From: a virus
Virus record (IMG/VR): IMGVR_UViG_3300029305_004519
Location: 13,541-77,540 of that record
Strand: one strand, 5' to 3'
DNA: 64,000 nt
How positions within the stretch are numbered: the first letter of the stretch is position 1; each line of letters opens with the position of its first letter. The position numbers were made by a program, and so were the translations under genes. Shown here one piece after another: positions 4,140-59,633 of this stretch. The notes under the pieces were generated by a model. It saw only the letters and a list, made by a program, of their open reading frames with translations. It was not told where the DNA came from and did no database searches.

Positions 4140-4340
4140 TTAAGCCAAAGTTAGTGGTCTATTATCCCACTCTTTTACTTGTAGTTTTTCAGTTGTTTGT
4201 AAAGTAATTTCTTTGTTACAGTAATTACATTTATAATATTCGATTTTATTACCTTGATATTCACCATAAGGGCCACCTCCTGTATGAGAGCCCTGGTAAT
4301 ATAAATATTGCAATTGTTGTTTGCATATAGGGCATTTCAT
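4140..4340 (-). CDS. Small zinc-ribbon protein
   Basis: CPICKQQ...CNYCNKE. 66 aa. Confidence 0.4.
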   Translation of the reverse strand: MKCPICKQQLQYLYYQGSHTGGGPYGEYQGNKIEYYKCNYCNKEITLQTTEKLQVKEWDNRPLTLA

Positions 4341-5452
4341 TATAATCTTACCCTTTCTTTAAATAATTTCATAAATGTTTCTGCGCCACAGTCGACGGGC
4401 GCATCTTTATATCCTAACATATCTCCCTTTTTATCAAAGATAAAAGAGATATTAACTAATTTCCTATATTTATTATGCAGCGCCGTTAGTTTCTTCGTCC
4501 ACTGCTTAAACTCTGCATCATTAGGTTCCTTAAATTGCTTATCAAAAGCAATCACTATCTCTATTGCTCCATACTGGCGCAAAAGGTCGACTTGATGCTG
4601 AATTAAGTTACTACCACAAGTTGCAACAGAGATGTCATTATCGGCACCAAACATTGATGCATATTTTAATGCGCTTTTCTCCCCCTCAAAGACTATTGCA
4701 GTTCTAAACTTACGGATGTTGTCTTTTGAGAAGTTTAAGTTATATAAAGCAAAACCTAATGGATGATTGTATTGAACGCCATTAAGAATCGCTGGTCGAT
4801 ACTTTCCGTATGCTTCTTCTTCTTTGATAAGCGTGCGTTCACGGATACCTATTAGTGCCCCATTTTCATCATAATGAGGTATCACAATACCTTGATTAAC
4901 TGGATCATAGCAGATACCGTGAGAATCCATTATCTCTTGAGTTATTCCTTCGTTAAGCCATGGCGTAATGCGCGGGCGTGGCAAATGCTGAAGAATATTT
5001 TCATCAAATTCTTTAAACTCAATTATTTTTTTATCATTACTGATGGAACTATTTTGTTGATAATTCTTTAAAATATCCCAATCACGAAGTTTTTGTTGAG
5101 AGTCTCCAAAATTTTCATCTTCAGATGAAGCTATGCTAAAGTAATGGGCAACATACCCTACGGCGCGCGATAGTGACCACTCTTCACCGCGCTGAAGCGC
5201 CCATTTGCGTGTTAGGTCAAAGATGTCGAATGAGTCACCACATTGAGTCCAACAATGGAACAACTTTGTATTCTCATAGTAGTAGAGTTTATGCGAACCA
5301 GTTCCGATTGGATTATGGCAGATGGTTCTTGAGATAAAGATTTCAGCACCATTTGAATCAAGTCGTGGTTCTCCTCCAAGCTCGGCAATATAATCGAATA
5401 CTTGTTGGAAGGTGAGTTGTTGCTTGATTGCGTCACTGTCATACCTCATTTT
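4340..5452 (-). CDS. DNA primase (DnaG-like; CHC2 zinc finger plus TOPRIM)
   Basis: CHNP...HKLYYYENTKLFHCWTQCG zinc finger; TOPRIM segment IVFEGEKSALK...VIAFDKQ. RBS GGGAGGAGAAAA upstream of the ATG at 5452. Confidence 0.8.
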   Translation of the reverse strand, partial: KMRYDSDAIKQQLTFQQVFDYIAELGGEPRLDSNGAEIFISRTICHNPIGTGSHKLYYYENTKLFHCWTQCGDSFDIFDLTRKWALQRGEEWSLSRAVGYVAHYFSIASSEDENFGDSQQKLRDWDILKNYQQNSSISNDKKIIEFKEFDENILQHLPRPRITPWLNEGITQEIMDSHGICYDPVNQGIVIPHYDENGALIGIRERTLIKEEEAYGKYRPAILNGVQYNHPLGFALYNLNFSKDNIRKFRTAIVFEGEKSALKYASMFGADNDISVATCGSNLIQHQVDLLRQYGAIEIVIAFDKQFKEPNDAEFKQWTKKLTALHNKYRKLVNISFIFDKKGDMLGYKDAPVDCGAETFMKLFKERVRL

Positions 5453-12362: not shown

Positions 12363-13556
12363 TTAGCTATTCCCGCGAGTTTTATTCAGGCCAAAATCAT
12401 ATGTTTGATAGAGGTCGATATAAAACTTCTCCTTTTCATTTAATTCATTGATACTACATTTTTCTAATACTTCAAAAGTAAAGTTATCAATACCTTTTTC
12501 TCTTGTGAATGCATAGAGTTGACTTGTTACAGGGGTGTCGATACCCAAGCTACATTTAACATGCGTTACCCAACGCTCTTTGATATCTTTAGCTTGTCCG
12601 ATGTATGATATGCCAGAGTCAATGTGGGTAATTTTATATATTCCACTTGCGCCCACCGCACCTACGCGCGCCGCAAGGTCATTGACTTTATCTCTATAGA
12701 ATGTAGACCATATAAGCATTCGCAAAGGTCTTGCCTCACGCAAATTATATTCAATGCTTTGAAGATATGCAACATCCCGTTTATCAGCTTCATTAATTTG
12801 AAGGGTATAAAATGTCGCTTGATTTTTAATTTCTTCTTCACGGAGTTGTGCCTCCATTGCGGCGGCCTTAGTTGCACGAATTTTTTCTAGCTCTTCACGA
12901 ATTGAATCTAAATCAGCGCGCATTGCCGCCTCTTCTTCTTGCAGCTCTTTAGACATTGATTGTTGCTTATCATAAAAGAGTTTTACAAGAATATCTAAAT
13001 CTTGACGCTGTTCTTCGATTAAACCATTTTCTCTAGCATCTAATTCTAACATTCTAGTGAAATAAAGCTCATCTAGCTTTGCGATGTCATTATTAAACTC
13101 CTGTTCTCGCTTTTGATATTCATAATCAAGAGTATCACAATATTGCTCAAATGAGGTGCGAGCAGCTGCCTTTAAACTACCTGACATCTCATCTATTGAG
13201 CGATTTAAAGTGGCGATTTGCGCCTCCACTCCTGCTTTTTCAATTTGCTTATTTTGAATTTCATTTATTAACAATAATTTCTATTGAGTTAATTGATTTA
13301 ATTCGTCATAAGAATTTTTTGTTTTTTTACAGTTCTCTTCATACTTTTGAGAAATTTCATTGTTAGATTTTATCAATAAGTCATTTTGAGCTTCTAGGCT
13401 TTTGCGAGTTGCATGTAATGACTAATTAAGCTCTTCCAGTTTCTAATTTTCTTCTGCTACATAGTGATTTGCTTTTATAGTTGTGGCTTTAGCCCATATT
13501 CCGTAAGCAAGGCCGCCTACGCCAAGAAGAATTGATATTACACATATGATTATCAT
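12363..13556 (-). CDS. GIY-YIG endonuclease with N-terminal TM/coiled-coil region and three in-frame TAG codons
   Basis: C-terminal GIYKITHIDSGISYIGQAKDIKERW (GIY-YIG). Reading up from the ORF-track start, the frame stays open through TAGs: MIIICVISILLGVGGLAYGIWAKATTIKANHYVAEEN[TAG]KLEELN[TAG]SLHATRKS...LNQLTQ[TAG]KLLLINEIQNK. Total 398 codons. Confidence 0.5.
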
Positions 13557-14185: not shown

Positions 14186-15019
14186 TCATTTCATTAACTC
14201 CAATAATTCTTCTTCAGTAATAATCGGAATGCCAAGTTCCTTTGCTTTAAGATTCTTTGATGATGTACTATCAATATCATTATTGACGAGATAATCAGTT
14301 TTTGAAGAGACCGATGATGTTACTTTACCACCTGCGGCGGTCACTGCTGCAGAAAGTTCATCTCGGTTTTTCCAGATGTGGACTCGACCTGTAACGCAAA
14401 AGGTTTTACCCTCAAGCGCATTTCCAGAATTTTCCAGCGCGCTTTCATTTGTTTTAAAGGTAATAATCCCCTTTTCTACAAGGCTATCTGCTTCCGTATA
14501 GTCAAAGCTTAAAATCGCATCTGCTTTCTCTGGTCCAATACCATCAAGCGACTCAAAATCAAAGCCATTCGCAACAGCATTTCTAAATTCTTCATAAGTT
14601 TCAAAAGTATTTGCAAGTTTCTGCGCATAGGTCTTACCTATAAGCGGAATGCTAATTGCGCTTAAATACTGTGCAAGAGTAGTCTCGCGTGCTTTCCATA
14701 TAGAGTCAATGAGCTTAGTTACGCTTTTAGGTCCGAAACCAGGCTTACTAGCCCAGAGATCAGCTACTTCACCGAGTGCGCAAATATCGCTTATAGAAGA
14801 TACCCAGCCCCAGTCGATAAGTTTCTCTAAAGTTGCTTTAGACAAGCCTTTAATATCAAGACCTTTCTTTGATACAAAATGTTCTAATTTGTTAATCAAT
14901 TTTCCACTGCAATCAGGATTATTACAAAATAATTCTTGTGTGCCGCTATCGCTCGTTTTGATAATTGTATTTCCGCCGCAAATAGGACAAGTCTTTGGTA
15001 TTTCAATCCATTCAATCAT
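14186..15019 (-). CDS. ligA: NAD-dependent DNA ligase, C-terminal half (Zn finger, HhH, BRCT)
   Basis: CPICGG...CNNPDC zinc finger, HhH region, then BRCT-like GKTFCVTGRV...ELGIPIITEEELLELMK. Own RBS and ATG. Confidence 0.8.
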   Translation of the reverse strand: MIEWIEIPKTCPICGGNTIIKTSDSGTQELFCNNPDCSGKLINKLEHFVSKKGLDIKGLSKATLEKLIDWGWVSSISDICALGEVADLWASKPGFGPKSVTKLIDSIWKARETTLAQYLSAISIPLIGKTYAQKLANTFETYEEFRNAVANGFDFESLDGIGPEKADAILSFDYTEADSLVEKGIITFKTNESALENSGNALEGKTFCVTGRVHIWKNRDELSAAVTAAGGKVTSSVSSKTDYLVNNDIDSTSSKNLKAKELGIPIITEEELLELMK

Positions 15020-15983
15020 ATTTTCTTTCCTTTTTTACAATAAATTTACTTTTATTAATATCTAAATCTTCTAAGGTTAATTGTTCAAGATGAGTATAAG
15101 GAATTCTAATTAATATAATATTATTATCCATACACCATTTATTCTTAAAAAGATCTCGAGCATTAGTTTTTTGAAATTGCTCTTCTGCGACTTTTTTAGA
15201 TATGCCTCCAAATTGTCGAGGAGTAAAATGCTGTTCCCCATCATATTCAATTAAATATTTATTTTCAACAAAAAAATCATAATATAAATGATAATTCGTA
15301 TCTGGGTAAACACAAGTATCAAAAGTTTTCTATTTTTCAAAAGTAATATTATTTTCTTTTAAAAGTTTTTCAATACAGTATTCTCCTTTTGATTTTCCTA
15401 AGCACCCACAAGAAGAAGTGTGACCTCGTCTAAGATTTAACGTTGAAACTTGGATTTTATTATGATCAGGACATGAGCATTCACATAGCCACATAATTCT
15501 ACCATTTGGATCACGTTCTTCCATTTTTTCTATAACTGTTAATTTACCAAAATGGGATCCAACAAGATTTAATGCTCTTTGTTCTCCCAATTTCTTCATG
15601 CGCTCTTTGGTAATACAACCACAAGATTTAGTACCTCCATTTTCTCCTTTTTTCAGCTAATCAGTTGGTACTTTAGTAATATTTCCACAATCACACTAAC
15701 ATTCCCATATCATACATCTTTTAGGGGTTTTTTCTCCAGTTGGACGTAAAGCCACTAATCGTCCGAATCTTTGCCCTGTTAAATCTTCAAATTTAGGTTC
15801 ATGTTTTTTACATCCACAAGAAGTTACTCGCTTTGCATTTAATTCTCCAGAAGTTACTTCTTTTTGATTTCCACACTAACATTGACAAAGCCAAACAACA
15901 GCTCCCCCTTTTCGTTTGTCTGTTTTTTCAATTACTGTTAAATAACCAAACTACTCTCCAATTAAATTTTTACAAGCTGGCAT
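15012..15983 (-). CDS. Homing endonuclease (Zn-ribbon repeats plus Vsr-like/DUF559 nuclease domain) with five in-frame TAG codons, inserted inside ligA
   Basis: RBS AAGGAGAAAAG and ATG at 15983. Frame open for 324 codons through TAGs at GE*FGY, QC*CGN, EC*CDC, TD*LKK and FEK*KTF. C-terminus has YDFFVENKYLIEYDGEQHF...ARDLFKNKW...ILIRIPY (DUF559/Vsr-like). Ends with TGA overlapping the ligA-C ATG. Confidence 0.5.
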
Positions 15984-17103
15984 CGTTTATCTTTTCTCCT
16001 TCTGCTACCTGCGGAATAATTTGATTAGCGAGGTAGACTTTAATTTTTTGTCCTTTATAAGGTCTACCTAATATTAAATTTAAAGTAGATAAATTATGCA
16101 AATTTGCCCTTGAAATTATATTTGAACCCGTATCTACATCTTTGTAAACTGCAACTGGAGTCAAGACACCAGTTCTACCCATAGACCATTCAATGTCTAA
16201 GAGTTCAGTCTCATATTCCTCGTCATAGAATTTATAAGCAAGACCGCCGCGAAAATGATGTTCTGTTCTACCTGCTGCTTGGTATTCTTTAATATTATCC
16301 CACTTAAAGACAATACCATCAATAGGATAGTCATTTAAAGAAGATAACCCTTTTATAGATGCTTCAATATATTTTTCAGTCTCACCTCCGCAAAATGGAA
16401 CACTAATAAAGCTTAAACTTTGCAAATGAGTAAGTTTGGCGCTTAAAGTAGTCATATCAATATAATTAAATCCTTGAATAATATCCCAAGCTACAAAAGT
16501 CAATTCTCTTTTAGCGCACTCATTACTATCCAAAAGTCGAATACTACCAGCTGCAAAGTTACGCGCATTAGCATGCTTGCCTTTGAATTGCTCAAAAGTA
16601 TCGAGATCGCAGATAACTTCTCCATCTACTACAAGTGTATCTTTATAAGGAATAATTTGTGGAATAGAGGGGAGCACTCGCGCATTATGGGTAATATCTT
16701 CGCCCTCAACGCCGTCTCCTCTTGTCTCGGCGCGAATTAGTCTACCTTCTTCATAAGTCAAACGACAAGTTAAACCGTCAAGCTTAAGCATTGCAATCCA
16801 TTCTTTATCACCGATAAAAGATTTAATTTCTTCAATATCTTTTGTCTTATCAAGTGAAAGCATAGGTTGATATTCATGCTTTACTTTTTTAAGCTCAGAT
16901 ACTACTTCATATCTAATCTTCTTAGTAGGTGAATTTTCAAATTCGATACTTGGAAACTCTTGTTCAAGAGCTTTAAGTTCCAAATAAGCTTCATCCCATT
17001 CTTTATCTGTTATCTTTGGAGTCCCAGCATCATATTGGTCTTGATGATAATTAAGATATTCAATTAATCTTCGCATTTTTTGCGCTACATCAAATTTCTC
17101 CAT
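15970..17103 (-). CDS. ligA: NAD-dependent DNA ligase, N-terminal half (adenylation plus OB domains)
   Basis: KxDG motif MLKLDGLTCRL and ...IIPQVAEG (OB end). Stops just before the Zn-finger region, which is encoded by 14186-15019. Confidence 0.8.
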   Translation of the reverse strand: MEKFDVAQKMRRLIEYLNYHQDQYDAGTPKITDKEWDEAYLELKALEQEFPSIEFENSPTKKIRYEVVSELKKVKHEYQPMLSLDKTKDIEEIKSFIGDKEWIAMLKLDGLTCRLTYEEGRLIRAETRGDGVEGEDITHNARVLPSIPQIIPYKDTLVVDGEVICDLDTFEQFKGKHANARNFAAGSIRLLDSNECAKRELTFVAWDIIQGFNYIDMTTLSAKLTHLQSLSFISVPFCGGETEKYIEASIKGLSSLNDYPIDGIVFKWDNIKEYQAAGRTEHHFRGGLAYKFYDEEYETELLDIEWSMGRTGVLTPVAVYKDVDTGSNIISRANLHNLSTLNLILGRPYKGQKIKVYLANQIIPQVAEGEKINDASL

Positions 17104-22467: not shown

Positions 22468-22543
22468 GCTTTAAGTATGGCTGGGAGTGTGGGATTCGAA
22501 CCCACGCATAACCGGGTTAGAGCCGGAGGCCTTAGCCGCTTGG
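22468..22543 (-). tRNA. Amber suppressor tRNA, anticodon CUA, tRNA-Gln-like body (tRNA-Sup(CUA), predicted Gln)
   Basis: Hand-folded canonical 76-nt cloverleaf: AGGGAGT/ACTCCCA acceptor (A1·A72 mismatch, G2-C71, G3-C70), G73, encoded CCA, D-arm GCCA/AGGC, anticodon loop C-U-C-U-A-A-C (U33, C34 U35 A36), T-arm GTGGG-TTCGAAT-CCCAC. Shares TCGCCAAGCGG...CCCAGCCA features with the tRNA-Gln(UUG) at 42331-42408. Confidence 0.8.
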
Positions 22544-22602
22544 CGAACTCCCTATTGATTACATATAAATTATAATCAAAATTTTTGAAAAAATCAATTA
22601 TT

Positions 22603-28559: not shown

Positions 28560-29480
28560 TTATACCTCCAAACATTCTCTCAGCAATCCTGCGCGTAGCG
28601 GATTGCGCAGTTTGCGCAAGGCCTTTTCTTCAATCTGTCTAATGCGCTCTTTAGATAGCTTATATTCATTTCCAATTTCTTCCAAAGTCTGAGCTTTATG
28701 ATTATTCAAACCATAGCGACGTGTCAGCACATCTGCTTCTCTATTGTCAAGAGTTGATAATACTTGTTGAATACGCTTAGAGACTTCTTCTTTGAAAATG
28801 TCTTCAATTGGAGATTCATTATTTTCATCTGCTACTAAATCGCCAATAGTTGCATCATCTTCATCATTGATACTTTGATCAATAGAGATTGGGTCTTTAA
28901 CAATAGCTCGCAACTCTTTAATTTTCTTTTCTTCAAGTCCCATATGATTTGCAAGCTCTTGTGTGGTAGGTTCTCTATTCAGTACTTGACAGAGTTCATT
29001 AGTGGCACGACTCAGTTTACTAAGTTGCTCAATAACATGCATAGGTACTCGAATGGCTCGCGATTGCTCAACGACAACTTTAGAGATACTTTGTTTAATC
29101 CACCATGTAGCGTAGGTAGAAAATTTATAACCTAAAGTATAATCCCACTTATCTACGGCGCGCATTAATCCAATATTTCCCTCTTGAATTAAATCAAGAA
29201 ATGGCATATTGGTACGATGTAAATATTTTTTTGCAATACTTACTACCAAACGCAAATTTGCTTCAATCAGTTTATTCCTTGCTTCAATACTTCCATTTGC
29301 AATTTGGGCGCCTAAAGCTTGCTCTTCTTCGTAGGAGAGCAAAGGAATTTTACTAATTGAGTTCATATATGCTTTTGTTGCGTCTGGTAAAAAACCCATA
29401 TTATCAAAATCTACATCAATACTATTTTCTTCCTCAAGAATCAAATCTTCCGCTTCTAAAATCATTACATTATTTTCCAT
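28560..29480 (-). CDS. Sigma-70 family RNA polymerase sigma factor (regions 1.2, 2, 3 and 4 all present)
   Basis: ...[14 protein letters not shown]...[19 protein letters not shown]...[10 protein letters not shown] (region 2) ... [28 protein letters not shown] (region 4.2 HTH). Confidence 0.8.
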
Positions 29481-55898: not shown

Positions 55899-56147
55899 GG
55901 TAGGCGCCTACACATTCTTCAGCGCAATATTCCATCTCCTCTTGGCTAGAAATGTCTACATTGTGACACATATATTCATCTATTACTCCATTCAAAAAAG
56001 AATTTCCAACGGTTACCTTAATTACTCCCATAGCTTTTATCCTTTCTTACTTTCTTTATTTTACATATATATTTTATCATATATTTTTCAAAAAATCAAT
56101 CAAATGACTTAAAAGTGGCACAAAGCGATGGTTGCGCGCCTTAGTTG

Positions 56148-56190
56148 ACTACTTTTTAAAAATATATTATAATATAAGTAACTAAAGATA
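56148..56190 (+). promoter_or_regulatory. Plus-strand sigma-70-type promoter (TTGACT-N17-TATAAT) at the start of the plus-strand gene block
   Basis: ttagTTGACTactttttaaaaatatatTATAATataag, followed by an RBS AAAAGGAGAAAAA and an ATG at 56208. Confidence 0.55.
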
Positions 56191-56207: not shown

Positions 56208-56672
56208 ATGGTATTTGGTGGATGTTTGATTATTTGCGTGTTAATTGTACTTGGTATATGGCATGGAAAAACTTTGATAGACTATAAGCGTTTATAGGAC
56301 AATTGCGGTGATAATGGGGTCATTGGCCCAGATCATATCATTTTTGTTGCTCTTGATCAAAGTAAGTATATGCAGGATTTAGCGCAGCGATGTATTTAGG
56401 CTCGTAAAAAAGTATAGATTCAAATATTTAAAACGCAAACAACGAAAGATGGGCGGCAAGATATTTTCTTTGAAAATGGAGATATTCTAAGTATTATTAC
56501 TTATGGGGCGCAAATCGCTCCGTTAAGTAAGCGTGATATTGGTATATACACGCATCGCTTTTTCTTTGATTATAAGCTACCTGAGGGCGCAGAGCGCGCC
56601 GTAATTAAAGATTTAGGTTTATTGGATTATGTATTAGACATCGGTATTTGTACCGAGAAAAGTGGGGGTTAA
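56208..56672 (+). CDS. Membrane protein (N-terminal TM helix) with three in-frame TAG codons
   Basis: MVFGGCLIICVLIVLGIWHGKTLIDYKRL[TAG]DNCGDNGVIGPDHIIFVALDQSKYMQDLAQRCI[TAG]ARKKV[TAG]IQIFKTQ..., then TAA. 155 codons. Confidence 0.5.
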
Positions 56673-56674
56673 AT

Positions 56675-57037
56675 ATGGATACTTGGAAAAAAACAAATGA
56701 AGCTTGGTTCGGAGATACTTTTGATAGAGCTTCCATTTGTGCTTATAATAGTGCTACTACGGATGCTGTTAACGGTGTCTCTGTAACAAAAGGCGTCGAT
56801 AACAATGCAGTTTTTACTTGCACAAATACTAATAATTGGGATAATGCAACTCTTCTTGTTGGAAATAATGGAGAGATAGCTTATAAGGATTATGCGGTTA
56901 AAAGTGATGTTGATTCTATTTGCAGTCAGTTAAAGAAACTACAAGAGCAAATAGATGAATTAAAGGTACGCTCAATGGTTACTTCAAACTTGCGTTCGGC
57001 GCTTAAAACATTGCAATATAAAAGAGAGGTAAAATAA
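56675..57037 (+). CDS. Hypothetical protein (possible virion or tail component)
   Basis: MDTWKKTNEAWFGDTFD..., translationally coupled to the upstream gene. Confidence 0.45.
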   Translation: MDTWKKTNEAWFGDTFDRASICAYNSATTDAVNGVSVTKGVDNNAVFTCTNTNNWDNATLLVGNNGEIAYKDYAVKSDVDSICSQLKKLQEQIDELKVRSMVTSNLRSALKTLQYKREVK

Positions 57038-57369
57038 TGTATTATAATGGATCAAGTTTTATATATAATAGACCAACAGCAAGTAAAGTTGAAAAAACTG
57101 AATACGCTGAGATGGTACATGTCAAAGCTCTTGCAACAAGAGTTGCGGTTTTAGAAGATAGGGAAAGTAAAATAGTCAATCAAGTGGCAACAGATAAAGC
57201 AATTCTAGAGGATGCTATTGATCAAATTAGATATAATTATCAAGCAATAAATGATTTGCGCTATGAGATTGATAAGTTAAAAAATGCGCTAAGCGTTGCT
57301 AAAAAACGTCGTAGGGTAACGATTTGCGCAGGCGATCAGAAAGTAGAAATTATCCGCGTTAATAATTGA
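57037..57369 (+). CDS. Hypothetical coiled-coil protein
   Basis: 110-aa ORF; ATG overlaps the upstream stop. Confidence 0.45.
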   Translation: MYYNGSSFIYNRPTASKVEKTEYAEMVHVKALATRVAVLEDRESKIVNQVATDKAILEDAIDQIRYNYQAINDLRYEIDKLKNALSVAKKRRRVTICAGDQKVEIIRVNN

Positions 57370-57615
57370 TAAAAGGTTGCTAAGGGCAAAGATTGGCGTC
57401 TCTTAAACCAACACGATTTTGTTACGATTTTAATTGATTTTGCTTTTGGGAAAAGGCGGAATGACAACAGATTGTTGTAGATTAATTAAAAAACCTCAAG
57501 CATACGAAAAGTAGAAAAATTTTAATAGCTTTATAAATCTTGGGCAAATTCAAGCAAAAAAGTTGTTGGAATTTTTATAATAAGATAGAAAAGATAAAGA
57601 AAGAGAGGTTTTATA

Positions 57616-58413
57616 ATGACTGTTGAAGAACTTTCTGATAAATATAATATGTCAGTAAGTAGTATTAAGAATTCTTTTCCACGAACTCAAGCTTCTATTT
57701 TGAAAAAACATGGAGTAAAAATTGTGAAATAGGGTAGAGGAGATAATGCTTAGTATTATGAGGAATGGGTCGATGACCAGCGCGCCTTAACAATGTATGA
57801 AGAAACAAAAGGAACGGTAATGATTAGTAGTGAACAATTATCAATGGTGAATTGGGACTTCCATGTTTTTTTAGGTATTATTACAACTCCAATGTTAGTT
57901 TTTAGAGGAAGTTATGAGGATTTTTTAAGATATACTTCTATCCCTGTTAATAATAATAATATATGGGAATTAAAAATGGCGCTTTAGCATCTTGTTGCGC
58001 GCGATTATATTAGCTATTAGATAGATAAAACTAATGAGAATTATTTTGTAGCCGCCCTTTGGTATTAGACGGAAAAAGATATGGAAATTGGAATAGAAAT
58101 GGTGCGCACTTGTAAATAGTTAGCGGAGTCTTATAATAAAAGAAGTTGGGTGCCATTATTAAAAACTTGGTTGGGTGTTTAGATGATGTCTAAGCATTAG
58201 CCTTATACAGTTGCGCAATTAGCGGAGATTACTGGGCTAAGCGATTATGCAATAAGAGAAAGTACAAAGATACTAGGAGATTGCGCAGTGTTTTAGACAT
58301 CGCGCGCATATAAATCTTATTAGAAATGTATTGGTACAAATGTAGAGTTTATTCATGAGGCTTTTTATGATTTGCCAGAAGATGGAGAAAAGAGGAAAGT
58401 GCCGAAGAAATAA
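57616..58413 (+). CDS. HTH-containing protein encoded with 11 in-frame TAG codons
   Basis: RBS AAAGAGAGG, ATG at 57616. 266 codons open through 11 TAGs to a TAA at 58411. Contains HTH-like segments SVSSIKNSFPRTQASILKKHG and PYTVAQLAEITGLSDYAIRESTKIL. ORF-track 57793-57987 is an internal fragment. Confidence 0.5.
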
Positions 58414-58630
58414 TACAAAGTTGTTGGAATTTAATACTTTTCTTAAGGATATATAAATAATATATAATGTTTAAGTAAAGTATTAAATCCAAACGAAAGT
58501 TGTTTATTATCGACCATGAGTTTAAGTAATTTATTAAATTCCAACAAATTTGGTTTAAAATGTCGAAAGATGGACTGCCCTAGCGAAGCGACGGGCAGGA
58601 CTTCTTGAGGAATGGAGGTGAAATAGATAG

Positions 58631-58840
58631 ATGGATGAATTTTTAATATTAGCTATGGCGCAAATTTTTGAAATACCAGAAGTAATAATGAAGGATACAG
58701 AAGTGTCTGAATGGTTTCTTGAAGAATTAACTAGATTGTTAGAAAGAGTAGAAGTGCAAACGTATTTAAAGAAATTCATGGAAAATGAACATTGGAAATA
58801 TAAAAGATGGTATGGGAAAATAGAAGAAGAAAATGAGTAA
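58631..58840 (+). CDS. Hypothetical small protein
   Basis: 69-aa ORF. Confidence 0.35.
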   Translation: MDEFLILAMAQIFEIPEVIMKDTEVSEWFLEELTRLLERVEVQTYLKKFMENEHWKYKRWYGKIEEENE

Positions 58841-59028
58841 TGATACTTGAAAAGGTGGAATTGTAATAAAGTATAATAAAGTGCGGGTGTGTGGTGGCAC
58901 CTAATCCAAACCCACTTCACTACACCCTCGTCTCCGTTATCCTTATGGAGATTAATATCTCTTATTTGATTTATAATAAAATATATGATATAATATATAT
59001 AGAAAATGGAAAGGAGAATATAAATAAT

Positions 59029-59349
59029 ATGAATATTCTTGAATTGCTGAAAAATGGTAAAACAGTAGAAGATATTACTGAAGACTTTTTTGCTGCTGTA
59101 GAGGAGTCTCAAGCAGCTTATGAGAAGTGGAAGGAAGAGGAAGAGGAAAAGAAGCGCGCGGCCGCTCAAAGAGCGCTGGAGCTAGAGTATAAGAAATCTA
59201 AGCAAGAGCAGGCGCGTAAGGCCTTGGGCGCCGCAATTGTTGATTACTTCTCTTCTCTTGATATCAAGGTAACTGAGAAGACCTTGGAAGATGTAGAGTG
59301 GATCATCGATGCGCTGCCGCAGATTAAGGTGGTGAGAACCTGGAGATGA
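59029..59349 (+). CDS. Hypothetical coiled-coil protein
   Basis: MNILELLKNGKTVEDITEDFF... (internal Met of ORF-track 58891-59349, with RBS GGAAAGGAGAA). Confidence 0.4.
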   Translation: MNILELLKNGKTVEDITEDFFAAVEESQAAYEKWKEEEEEKKRAAAQRALELEYKKSKQEQARKALGAAIVDYFSSLDIKVTEKTLEDVEWIIDALPQIKVVRTWR

Positions 59350-59633
59350 GCAATATGAATGAAGGTGTTATCAAGGAAGGCCGCGCCTATATTATCAATG
59401 GTCTCTTGGCTTATGGCGAAGGGTTTGGCGTATTGGCGCCGGAGGAGATTCCTCAGGAATTGATGGAAGACTTGGATGAAGGGCTTGAGACTATTGAAGC
59501 GGCGATCCCGGTTTTGATCAGCTTATGGGAAATGAGTAATAAACTTAAGGACAAGGATGAACAACAGACATTCCTAGAGTTTTTAGCAGAAATTCTGAAA
59601 GATAGACAAGATAAGCATGGATTATTTGGTTAA
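59346..59633 (+). CDS. Hypothetical protein
   Basis: 95-aa ORF. Confidence 0.4.
   Translation: MSNMNEGVIKEGRAYIINGLLAYGEGFGVLAPEEIPQELMEDLDEGLETIEAAIPVLISLWEMSNKLKDKDEQQTFLEFLAEILKDRQDKHGLFG

Follow-up and report, generated by a model that had tools for sequence, protein, structure and literature searches.

A gene for a predicted DNA-binding protein of 265 aa, a core gene of its phage clade, carries ten in-frame TAG codons at positions 57616-58413 of the window, the 64-kb stretch of phage DNA analysed here. The stop-codon recoding of late phage genes is known from published work; the new aspect is that a conserved gene of this predicted DNA-binding type may be a preferentially recoded family. 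The explanation that we favour as a whole, and regard as reasonably probable, is that synthesis of the protein is gated at the TAGs by a suppressor tRNA and that the protein is a candidate for self-regulation late in infection. So far, recoding has been seen as a possible timer of lysis and structural genes, whereas here the most recoded local gene encodes a protein of the DNA-binding type.

A conserved gene with ten in-frame TAG codons

57616-58413, plus strand: gene of a 265-aa protein, predicted to have three tandem winged-helix domains; ATG to TAA, 10 in-frame TAGs

The gene comprises 265 sense codons in a single frame free of TAA and TGA. The first-pass annotation of this DNA had described one open frame running through the TAGs to a TAA, with exactly these coordinates, but had counted 11 TAGs in 266 codons; the correct number is 10 (positions 57730, 57751, 57985, 58018, 58066, 58117, 58180, 58198, 58294, and 58321). 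It had also suggested a homolog search with the product, a comparison of codon usage with the other frames, and shuffled controls, and each of these spoke for the TAG-spanning frame. More than 200 full-length homologs (counted as clusters) were found with 45-92% identity, the best at 92%; the codon-usage score was positive in frame +0 only (z = 4.1); and not one of 5,000 shuffles of the gene was free of in-frame TAA and TGA. The synteny around the gene is conserved in relatives, and dN/dS was 0.026-0.069 at a dS of ~1.4. This is a genuine gene on which purifying selection acts strongly. Standard-code annotation splits it into pieces of at most 64 aa, and for its protein Pfam, PHROG, and NCBIfam offer no family match, which is of practical importance for annotation.

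In 9 of the 10 TAG columns the closest homologs have glutamine. At conserved glutamine columns, TAG is exchanged with CAA or CAG between the window gene and its orthologs in lineages L001 and L003. The residue most often aligned to TAG in other genes of the window was also glutamine, which supports the same assignment less strongly. Judging from these alignments, TAG is read as glutamine in gene 57616-58413.

Genetic code and suppressor tRNA of the source phage

The window covers the early/replication region of an uncultivated phage with a large genome, probably ~100-145 kb in size. Contigs sharing proteins with the window reach only into further small early genes, and the late genes of relatives were read along the IMG/VR contig of a relative. 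Searches against GenBank phages with the plus-strand block and the topoisomerase region (blastn) and with the 265-aa protein (tblastn) gave no useful match.

On the evidence of its sequence, the genetic code of the phage is code 15, with TAG reassigned to glutamine. Coding shares were determined with a simple, non-overlapping gene caller, as raw sums of ORF lengths are uninformative owing to overlapping spurious ORFs. The share of the whole window rose from 72.0% under the standard code to 75.1% with TAG as a sense codon and was 68.8% with TGA as a sense codon. In the 2.2-kb block at 56208-58413 it increased from 42% to 90%. The statement of the first-pass annotation that this block looks almost non-coding under the standard code was overstated, since the caller still covers 42% of it. 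In a 21-kb locus of the late region of a relative, the called coding sequence grew from 9.5 kb to 16.4 kb when TAG was read as sense, versus 9.6 kb when TGA was.

22478-22553, minus strand: tRNA with anticodon CUA (amber suppressor), detected by ARAGORN, in a transcription unit of its own

The tRNA(CUA) folds into a canonical cloverleaf with the pairs G2-C71 and G3-C70, an unpaired 1-72 position, and G73. The acceptor features are Gln-like, the 3' end CCCAGCCA is identical to that of the phage tRNA-Gln(UUG), and the T arm (T stem plus loop) has the canonical sequence GGTTCGAATCC. From the acceptor features the tRNA is predicted to carry glutamine. It has a separate, strong promoter of the sigma-70 type (TTGATT-17-TATAAT, 22597->22569). 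Together with the homologs and the exchange of TAG with CAA/CAG at glutamine columns, the presence of this tRNA in the window upholds the original proposal that TAG is a sense codon.

The opposite assumption, that the frame is not a gene at all (a pseudogene or a chance ORF) or that TAG encodes a residue other than glutamine, such as pyrrolysine, can be practically dismissed. It could appeal to the ten standard-code stops and to the name 'Pyl' that ARAGORN gave to the tRNA, a label derived from the anticodon alone. A non-gene is contradicted by the more than 200 full-length homologs and a dN/dS of 0.03-0.07, and a different residue by the alignment of TAG to glutamine and its swapping with CAA/CAG. 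Pyrrolysine in particular was rejected because the tRNA has an ordinary cloverleaf, a canonical T arm, and a Gln-like acceptor, the TAG columns correspond to glutamine, and the annotated proteins include no pyl genes.

Promoter and other genes of the plus-strand block

The gene belongs to a plus-strand block with the following further features.

56145-56173, plus strand: sigma-70-type promoter TTGACT-N17-TATAAT, near-consensus (11/12), preceding the block
56208-56672, plus strand: gene of a 154-aa protein with a hydrophobic helix at the N-terminus; 3 TAGs (56295, 56397, 56415)
56675-57037, plus strand: 120-aa gene, TAG-free, with fast-evolving orthologs in L001 and L003
57037-57369, plus strand: 110-aa gene, TAG-free, its start overlapping the preceding stop (ATAATG)
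58631-58840, 58891-59349, and 59346-59633, plus strand: three further genes of the block, all TAG-free

The promoter had been noticed before and is present, but lies at 56145-56173 and not at 56148-56190. The window has 18 such near-consensus promoters, this one included (score of at least 11/12; spacer of 17 nt in every case), and the majority precede TAG-free early/replication genes. No late promoter was recognised ahead of the block; the sole recognisable promoter there is of the class found before the TAG-free early/replication genes.

For the transmembrane (TM) gene 56208-56672, both the frame and the count of three TAGs were verified. Of its frames, only +0 scored positively for codon usage (z = 3.5), and 2 of 5,000 shuffles were free of TAA and TGA. 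The L003 ortholog shows 48% identity, a conserved C-terminus, and one TAG in common. RBS-like GGAG/GAGAGG motifs are located ahead of all four starts in 56208-58413, and with the ATAATG junction and the 90% coding share they bear out the earlier description of dense coding with RBSs and overlapping start/stop junctions. None of the four block proteins had a significant family in Pfam, PHROGs, or NCBIfam, and the 154-aa protein had no match at all in Pfam or PHROG. An Rfam scan of 55.5-60 kb gave only chance-level matches.

Predicted fold of the protein and DNA motifs beside its gene

The structure model of the 265-aa protein has three winged-helix domains (mean pLDDT, 74). From the sequence, two HTH-like segments had been proposed. 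Pfam picks up the C-terminal domain only, and weakly (HTH_5, E = 1e-3, 19.1 bits versus a cutoff of 22), and HTH_11 reached 15.6 bits versus a cutoff of 25. No Pfam score for membership among MarR/ArsR-type regulators was above the curated threshold, and the likeness to them is at the level of the fold. A sequence search of the PDB with a profile made from the homolog alignment gave nothing significant. Domain by domain, the fold is shared with MarR/SarA-type regulators, with the tandem proteins SarS, ScpB, TFIIIC tauB, and RPC62, and with RepA-type initiators. The 265-aa protein differs from the known winged-helix families in having no sequence-family membership and in its three domains per chain, which match no solved full-length architecture (TM-score, ≤0.27). 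The model predicts a DNA-binding, regulator-like protein, in keeping with the earlier suggestion of a regulator. The predicted winged-helix fold is generic and fits a transcription factor and a replication initiator alike.

Candidate target sites adjoin the gene on both sides.

57546-57581, plus strand: palindrome AAATTCAAGCAA-N5-TTGTTGGAATTT (57546-57574) abutting a TATAAT (57576-57581), candidate operator
58411-58557: three ~36-nt repeats with TTGTTGGAATTT-like cores, A on the plus strand (58411-58446), B on the minus strand (58469-58506), and C on the minus strand (58520-58557)

The palindrome and the TATAAT are located 35-70 nt upstream of the ATG. A like architecture precedes the L001 ortholog, with the perfect palindrome AAATTCAAACAA-AATTA-TTGTTTGAATTT, and a palindrome/TATAAT arrangement is also present upstream of the L003 ortholog. 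An exact 16-mer of the upstream palindrome was found again after the gene. Of the three downstream repeats, A and B flank an AT-only centre and C lies to their right; no further copy with up to two mismatches was found in the 64 kb. In L001, L007, and L022, the stop codon of the ortholog is followed by analogous inverted repeats with lineage-specific sequences; several lineages have no copy of the repeat motif close to the ortholog. Palindromic or repeated DNA motifs nearby are likewise known for autoregulated repressors and iteron-binding initiators. As RNA, the region 58411-58557 folds well (z = -5.4), and the downstream repeats could act as a long RNA hairpin instead of as DNA sites. As the candidate operators adjoin the gene, a test of binding would be well defined.

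TAG enrichment in the gene and its orthologs

TAG accounts for 10 of the 14 glutamine codons of gene 57616-58413, compared to 29 of 571 in the 85 remaining genes called in the window (Fisher p = 4e-10). The five TAG-free plus-strand genes have TAG at 0 of 19 glutamine codons (p = 1e-5 versus 10/14), which speaks against a strand-specific mutation bias as the cause of the TAG richness. Similar contrasts were observed in relatives: TAG was used at 11 of 17 glutamine codons in the L001 ortholog versus 7.6% in the flanks, at 7 of 14 versus 3.5% in L014, at 8 of 14 versus 6.4% in L019, and at 6 of 14 versus 5.0% in L022. In four TAG-recoded lineages that are not clustered on the tree, the ortholog was the most TAG-dense gene within ±10 kb, and it exceeded the local TAG background in all five TAG loci, the window included. 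In the gene tree, a single-gene NJ tree without support values, standard-code and TGA lineages fall between the TAG lineages. The columns occupied by TAG differ from lineage to lineage and synonymous sites are saturated, arguing against inheritance of the TAGs from a common ancestor.

In TGA-recoded relatives, TGA is present at 2-3 of the 4-5 tryptophan codons of the gene, compared with 2-16% in the flanks in four of five loci; the counts are tiny (3-5 tryptophan codons per gene), and the contrast had p < 0.05 in three of the five TGA loci and was missing in one. With respect to the codes, TGA fills the place of TAG in the ortholog of these relatives.

Proposed timing and competing explanations

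According to the explanation that we favour, mRNA of gene 57616-58413 would be made from early-type promoters, and as long as the phage suppressor tRNA is scarce, host release factor 1 would stop translation at the TAGs. The yield of full-length protein would equal the read-through per TAG raised to the tenth power, that is, 0.001 at 50% and 0.35 at 90% read-through, and the gene would therefore show steep threshold behaviour and serve as a sensor of the code switch. Full-length 265-aa protein would then probably be made only after the suppressor tRNA has built up. Late in infection, the protein would bind to the downstream repeat cluster and to the TTGTTGGAATTT-type palindrome that overlies its promoter, and would thereby regulate transcription of its own gene and of neighbours or some other DNA transaction. 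Gating of the same kind, but less steep, would apply to the TM gene 56208-56672 with its three TAGs. We infer the timing, the gating, and the DNA targets of the protein from the sequence. As the block lies behind an early-type sigma-70 promoter, any delay would have to be translational and not transcriptional. The first-pass annotation had described the genes as late-expressed and gated by suppressor tRNA; the TAG share, which is at least that of structural and packaging genes of relatives, agrees with this view, whereas the promoter is of the early type. If selection maintains the codon bias, the code switch would act on a regulator as well as on effector proteins, which would provide a testable link between recoding and the developmental programme. 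A more far-reaching version, which we regard as speculative and rather doubtful, is that the triple winged-helix protein is a dedicated 'code-switch sensor'. Its gene would be kept loaded with the reassigned stop of the respective lineage (TAG in at least three ungrouped lineages, TGA in another), its synthesis would rise steeply near complete suppression, and the protein would then trigger or lock the late programme via operators at its own locus and elsewhere. Were this true, a change of the genetic code would be coupled directly to a transcriptional or replication switch.

It is also conceivable, though we have considerable doubts, that the gene is an ordinary member of a late TAG-using class, that its number of TAGs is without special significance, and that it has no particular part in the code switch. 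In recoded relatives, TAG reaches 19-32% in late blocks overall and up to 50-60% in single late genes, and in L014 the ortholog (50% TAG) did not significantly exceed the late block of that genome (p = 0.24). Borges et al. moreover described late modules as dispersed over several places of the genome. However, the surroundings of gene 57616-58413 are poor in TAG (none at the 19 glutamine codons of its same-strand neighbours), the gene is isolated there behind promoters of the early type, and the orthologs pooled over four lineages exceeded the late blocks (49% versus 29%, p = 0.002). The major capsid gene, which is surely late, has 0-2 TAGs in relatives, and being late is therefore by itself no predictor of TAG density. 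For the winged-helix family, the stop-codon preference is seen locally and in the pooled orthologs, and may be a genome-wide bias of the family.

Two further functions were considered. An origin-binding replication initiator of the plasmid RepA or lambda O type, with the repeats as iterons, the AT-only centre as an unwinding element, and amber gating as the timer of a switch in replication mode, is compatible with the fold and with the presence of repeats and AT-only centre. We nevertheless consider it unlikely, as the scores of MarR-type regulators are just as good, O-like proteins give low TM-scores (0.2-0.4), and no sequence-family match was found in Pfam or NCBIfam. In addition, the replication genes of the window are TAG-poor, whereas gene 57616-58413 is late-class in its TAG use, and neither a turning point in GC skew nor a global strand switch was observed at the locus. 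An attempt to place a replication origin by GC skew was given up, as the skew merely follows the coding strand. Small terminases bind DNA through HTH domains, and their genes often contain or adjoin the pac site. The flanking repeats might accordingly be taken for a packaging site and the protein for the small terminase subunit, as the first-pass annotation had suggested, and the late-class TAG use resembles that of the large terminase gene. This identity is highly improbable: in a relative, the large terminase gene is located ~27 kb from the ortholog and is preceded by a sigma-like gene and a gene for a 395-aa zinc-ribbon protein, the model has three tandem winged-helix domains and no helical oligomerisation core, and PHROG and Pfam gave no terminase match.

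Relation to known recoded phages

Recoding of TAG to glutamine (code 15) was reportedly described by Ivanova et al. in 2014. Stop-codon recoding has been interpreted as a post-transcriptional gate with few preferentially recoded gene families, comprising lysis proteins, tail proteins, a TM protein, and an intron endonuclease (bioRxiv 10.1101/2021.08.26.457843), and the reassignment of TAG to glutamine in crAss-like phages was validated by proteomics (Peters et al., PMC9523058). In contrast to these published families, the recoded gene described here encodes a conserved protein predicted to bind DNA through tandem winged-helix domains and stands alone in an early region. Other properties agree with those of the code-15 gut phages of Borges et al., namely in-frame TAGs in conserved genes, TAG at glutamine positions, a phage-encoded tRNA(CUA), TAG-poor early/replication genes besides TAG-rich late genes, and a mixture of codes 11, 4, and 15 in one clade with genomes of ~100-150 kb. 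Their 'Agate' clade resembles the clade studied here in size range and code mix.

Block-wise dual coding (Mgcod, bioRxiv 10.1101/2022.06.29.495998; crAss-like phages, PMC7886860) likewise involves a short code-15-only stretch within sequence compatible with the standard code. Here, however, the block amounts to one gene and a weaker second one, with TAG-free genes on the same strand between and after them. The ~136-kb gut phage phAss-1 ('Phassvirus', PMC10607447) has many tRNAs and shares with the phage of the window the reading of TAG as glutamine and tRNA(CUA) genes. As the locus has no nucleotide or protein match to GenBank phages, it represents a lineage other than phAss-1. In the phAss-1 paper (PMC10607447), TAG was described in terminase, portal, and tail genes, whereas here it is concentrated in a regulator-like gene.

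The winged-helix gene and the reading of TAG

Four genes lie on the plus strand in the block at 56208-58413, tightly joined and equipped with RBS-like motifs; a promoter-like sequence precedes them:

56145-56173, plus strand, promoter-like TTGACT-N17-TATAAT ahead of the block
56208-56672, plus strand, TM gene, 154 aa, hydrophobic N-terminus, 3 in-frame TAGs
56675-57037, plus strand, 120-aa gene, 0 in-frame TAGs
57037-57369, plus strand, 110-aa gene, start overlapping the preceding stop, 0 in-frame TAGs
57616-58413, plus strand, winged-helix gene, 265 aa, ending in TAA, 10 in-frame TAGs

Our analysis confirmed the first-pass annotation of this block, made from the sequence without database searches, with minor corrections. 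The RBSs and the overlapping start/stop were seen as described, the promoter is present but had been placed at 56148-56190, and the count of 11 TAGs in 57616-58413 was one too high. The block was also said to be nearly non-coding under the standard code and densely coding with TAG as sense. The density was borne out, as coverage by a non-overlapping gene call was 90% with TAG as sense, but "almost non-coding" was too strong for the 42% covered under the standard code, in which the winged-helix gene is broken into pieces of at most 64 aa and both middle genes stay whole. As the annotation had suggested, codon bias was compared with other frames and shuffles; the codon-usage score of the winged-helix gene was positive in the proposed frame only (z = 4.1 versus shuffles), and 0 of 5000 shuffles were free of TAA and TGA over its length. 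The TM protein has an ortholog with 48% identity, a conserved C-terminus and one TAG in common.

A homolog search with the 265-aa translation (TAG as Q), likewise proposed at first pass, matched >200 clusters, mostly full-length (best 92%, 91%, and 87% identical); TAG had already been translated as Q in calling these database proteins. At the DNA level, the orthologs of the two nearest relatives, L001 and L003, contain 11 and 8 TAGs, respectively, and conserved Gln columns alternate between TAG, CAA, and CAG among the three genes. Nine of the ten TAG columns of the window gene carry Q in the nearest homologs. The dN/dS values against L001 and L003 were 0.026 and 0.069, with saturated synonymous sites (dS about 1.4). 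One of the 25 tRNA genes in the window has the anticodon CUA (22478-22553, minus strand); it lies away from the tRNA array behind its own promoter, TTGATT-17-TATAAT. Its acceptor end resembles that of the phage tRNA-Gln (G2-C71, G3-C70, 1-72 unpaired, G73, identical 3′ end CCCAGCCA). ARAGORN labeled it "Pyl", which reflects the anticodon only, since the cloverleaf is ordinary. The homologs, the codon exchange at Gln columns, and tRNA(CUA) support the earlier reading of TAG as sense, and on this sequence evidence the winged-helix gene is shown to be real and TAG in it to mean Gln.

AlphaFold2 (45 homologs; mean pLDDT 74) predicted three winged-helix domains, residues 1-51, 79-148, and 179-245, with a disordered linker at 53-77. 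Foldseek matched the model to the tandem winged-helix proteins TFIIIC tauB, ScpB, SarS, and RPC62 and, in a viral library at low TM-scores, to entries labeled "HTH domain" and "replication protein O". No curated sequence family was matched by the 265-aa protein. The safest description is a DNA-binding protein with tandem winged helices, belonging to a family not yet described.

TAG enrichment in the gene and its orthologs

TAG accounts for 10 of the 14 Gln codons of the winged-helix gene versus 29 of 571 (5%) in the other 85 called window genes (p = 4e-10). The five same-strand genes without TAG had 0/19 (p = 1e-5), which rules out strand-specific mutation bias as the source of the TAG richness. 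Several of the sparse TAGs elsewhere lie upstream of the PHROG-aligned part of their genes and may be start over-calls. In the TAG-poor early/replication genes on the minus strand, 15 of 26 in-frame TAGs fall inside the first 40 codons; some of these (primase, RNase H) are probably start-codon over-calls. The TAGs of RecJ (codon 18) and Sak4 (codons 10 and 13) lie within the PHROG-aligned region.

Among IMG/VR and metagenome loci, the family occupies a conserved position in a clade with three codes: standard, with an ortholog TAG-free in frame; TGA as Trp, with in-frame TGA at conserved Trp columns; and TAG as Gln. In each of four TAG-recoded relatives, no other gene within ±10 kb is as dense in TAG as the ortholog.

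TAG share of Gln codons in TAG-recoded relatives
Relative; ortholog; flanks
L001; 11/17; 7.6%
L014; 7/14; 3.5%
L019; 8/14; 6.4%
L022; 6/14; 5.0%

The TAG columns mostly differ from lineage to lineage, and in a neighbor-joining protein tree (single gene, without support values) TAG lineages branch among those of the standard code and of TGA. In the TGA-recoded relatives, TGA is used at 2-3 of the ortholog's 4-5 Trp codons versus 2-16% in the flanks in 4/5 loci; with these small numbers, the contrast reached p < 0.05 in 3/5 loci (p 0.01-0.03). The TGA-as-Trp phages bearing close family relatives are L011, L012, L013, L015, and L021 (IMG/VR; G+C 29-30%). Standard-code relatives are L005-L010, L016-L018, and L023, in some of which TAG terminates the ortholog. 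In two other lineages with TAG recoding, L020 and L022, small genes adjoining the ortholog (L020 9385-9861 and 10881-11087; L022 9246-9656) are also very TAG-rich (TAG/Gln 9/17, 5/7, 3/4), with no detectable homology to the window's neighbor genes.

Comparison with late genes

As no structural module was recognizable within the 64-kb window or reached in contigs sharing its proteins, we followed the 141-kb contig of L014, one of the relatives, and then examined capsid-gene loci. The late block of the L014 phage is TAG-rich.

TAG/Gln in late genes of relative L014
Sigma-like protein (PHROG 5767); 9/18
Large terminase halves; 5/11 and 8/15
Portal; 10/29
Major capsid protein; 0/18

In recoded relatives the overall TAG share of the late blocks is 19-32%, and thus the TAG use of the winged-helix gene is late-class or higher. 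Orthologs pooled over four lineages had 49% TAG versus 29% in late blocks (p = 0.002), a contrast that lost significance when L014 was taken by itself (p = 0.24). The relative's major capsid gene encodes Gln by CAG alone. No TAG occurs in the sigma-70-family factor encoded by the window itself (28560-29480), versus 9/18 in the relative's sigma-like protein. The latter, 409 aa long (PHROG 5767, E = 2e-52), is the first product of the late operon in the recoded relative (L032/L036/L114; IMGVR_UViG_3300013936_000013, at ~37-38 kb of the contig).

Promoters and proposed translational gating

Over positions 1-64000, 18 promoter-like sites of sigma-70 type matched TTGACA-N17-TATAAT at 11 or more of the 12 bases, all with 17-nt spacers, nearly all intergenic and correctly oriented ahead of genes. 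The promoter of the block is of one class with those ahead of TAG-free replication genes, and the late operons of relatives also begin with sigma-70-like promoters. TAG-rich and TAG-free genes are therefore not clearly set apart by their transcription, in agreement with the published proposal of recoding as a gate on translation (bioRxiv 10.1101/2021.08.26.457843). Five perfect copies at 61.3-63.7 kb ahead of small genes (61313, 61870, 62000, 62884, 63724; minus strand) likely mark an immediate-early region.

Under such gating, the suppressor tRNA would compete with host RF1 at the TAGs, synthesis of the winged-helix protein would be delayed, and the protein might then act at candidate binding sites with a downstream effect. 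The full-length yield computed for ten TAGs (read-through to the tenth power) is 0.001 at 50%, 0.35 at 90%, and 0.74 at 97% read-through, which would set a sharp threshold in the suppressor tRNA/release factor ratio. The gene is recoded, conserved, enriched in TAG, and encodes a DNA-binding fold; its late timing, as proposed at first pass, is plausible.

TAG-to-Gln recoding in gut phages is established (PMC9523058; bioRxiv 10.1101/2021.08.26.457843), as are TAG-poor early versus TAG-rich late genes and mixed codes within one clade. Preferential recoding has been described for few families, namely lysis, tail, TM, and intron-endonuclease proteins (bioRxiv 10.1101/2021.08.26.457843), whereas the candidate found here is a tandem winged-helix DNA-binding protein. 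Since a full-text literature search found no paper tying recoding to a winged-helix regulator, we regard this as a new case within the known phenomenon of phage recoding. The TAG bias may have been selected for gating a regulator.

Candidate DNA sites around the gene

The palindrome AAATTCAAGCAA-N5-TTGTTGGAATTT (57546-57574) abuts a TATAAT immediately upstream of the winged-helix gene, and the identical 16-mer recurs 4 nt past its stop. The 217-nt spacer 3′ of the gene holds three copies of a ~36-nt repeat, copies 1 and 2 inverted around an AT-only center and copy 3 to their right; no further close copies were found in the 64 kb. The upstream palindrome is kept in L001 and L003 with their own sequence variants, and inverted repeats of like kind follow the ortholog in L001, L007, and L022. 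The motif was absent near the ortholog in several other lineages. By their sequence and placement, the palindrome and repeats fit candidate operators of the adjacent protein (autoregulation); iterons of a candidate origin would also fit. The downstream repeats could equally form an RNA hairpin, their predicted RNA folding having z = -5.4.

The 246-nt spacer ahead of the gene contains GATTTT-type direct repeats (ACGATTTTGTTACGATTTTAATTGATTTTGCTTTTG, 57400-57450), followed by a second small palindrome, ACAACAGATTGTTGT. The GATTTT-type stretch is nearly identical in L001 and L003, though the flanking genes there are 31-59% identical.

Gene content of the window

The window has 38% G+C, carries nearly all of its genes on the minus strand, and covers the region of a large phage devoted to replication and nucleotide metabolism. 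Clear PHROG matches were obtained for a RecJ-like exonuclease, primase, DnaB helicase, a Sak4-like protein, NAD-dependent DNA ligase, two topoisomerase II subunits, RNase H, RNA ligase, a sigma factor, and NAPRT.

The ligase is in two parts (14186-17103, minus strand; adenylation/OB 15970-17103, HhH+BRCT 14186-15019) separated by an HNH homing-endonuclease gene (15012-15983), which with 5 in-frame TAGs ranks second in the window by TAG count. Three in-frame TAGs occur in a GIY-YIG endonuclease gene (12363-13556), and in L036 the large terminase too is split by an HNH gene. An 855-aa protein (30716-33283, minus strand) carries a major-vault-protein shoulder domain (PF11978, E = 1e-23) and a Vault_3 repeat and is 59% identical to its counterpart in relative L022; a 512-aa SPFH/flotillin-like membrane protein (37476-39014, minus strand) matches Band_7 (E = 6e-23). 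Neither gene contains TAG in frame, and codon bias is stronger in these two than in any other window gene. The JGI contig L024 overlaps the right end of the window (about 58.0-64.0 kb), where its proteins are 99-100% identical to those of the window; ~5-10 kb past that end, amid many small genes, it encodes a PemK-family toxin (4177-4515) and a Lar-like restriction-alleviation protein (106-318).
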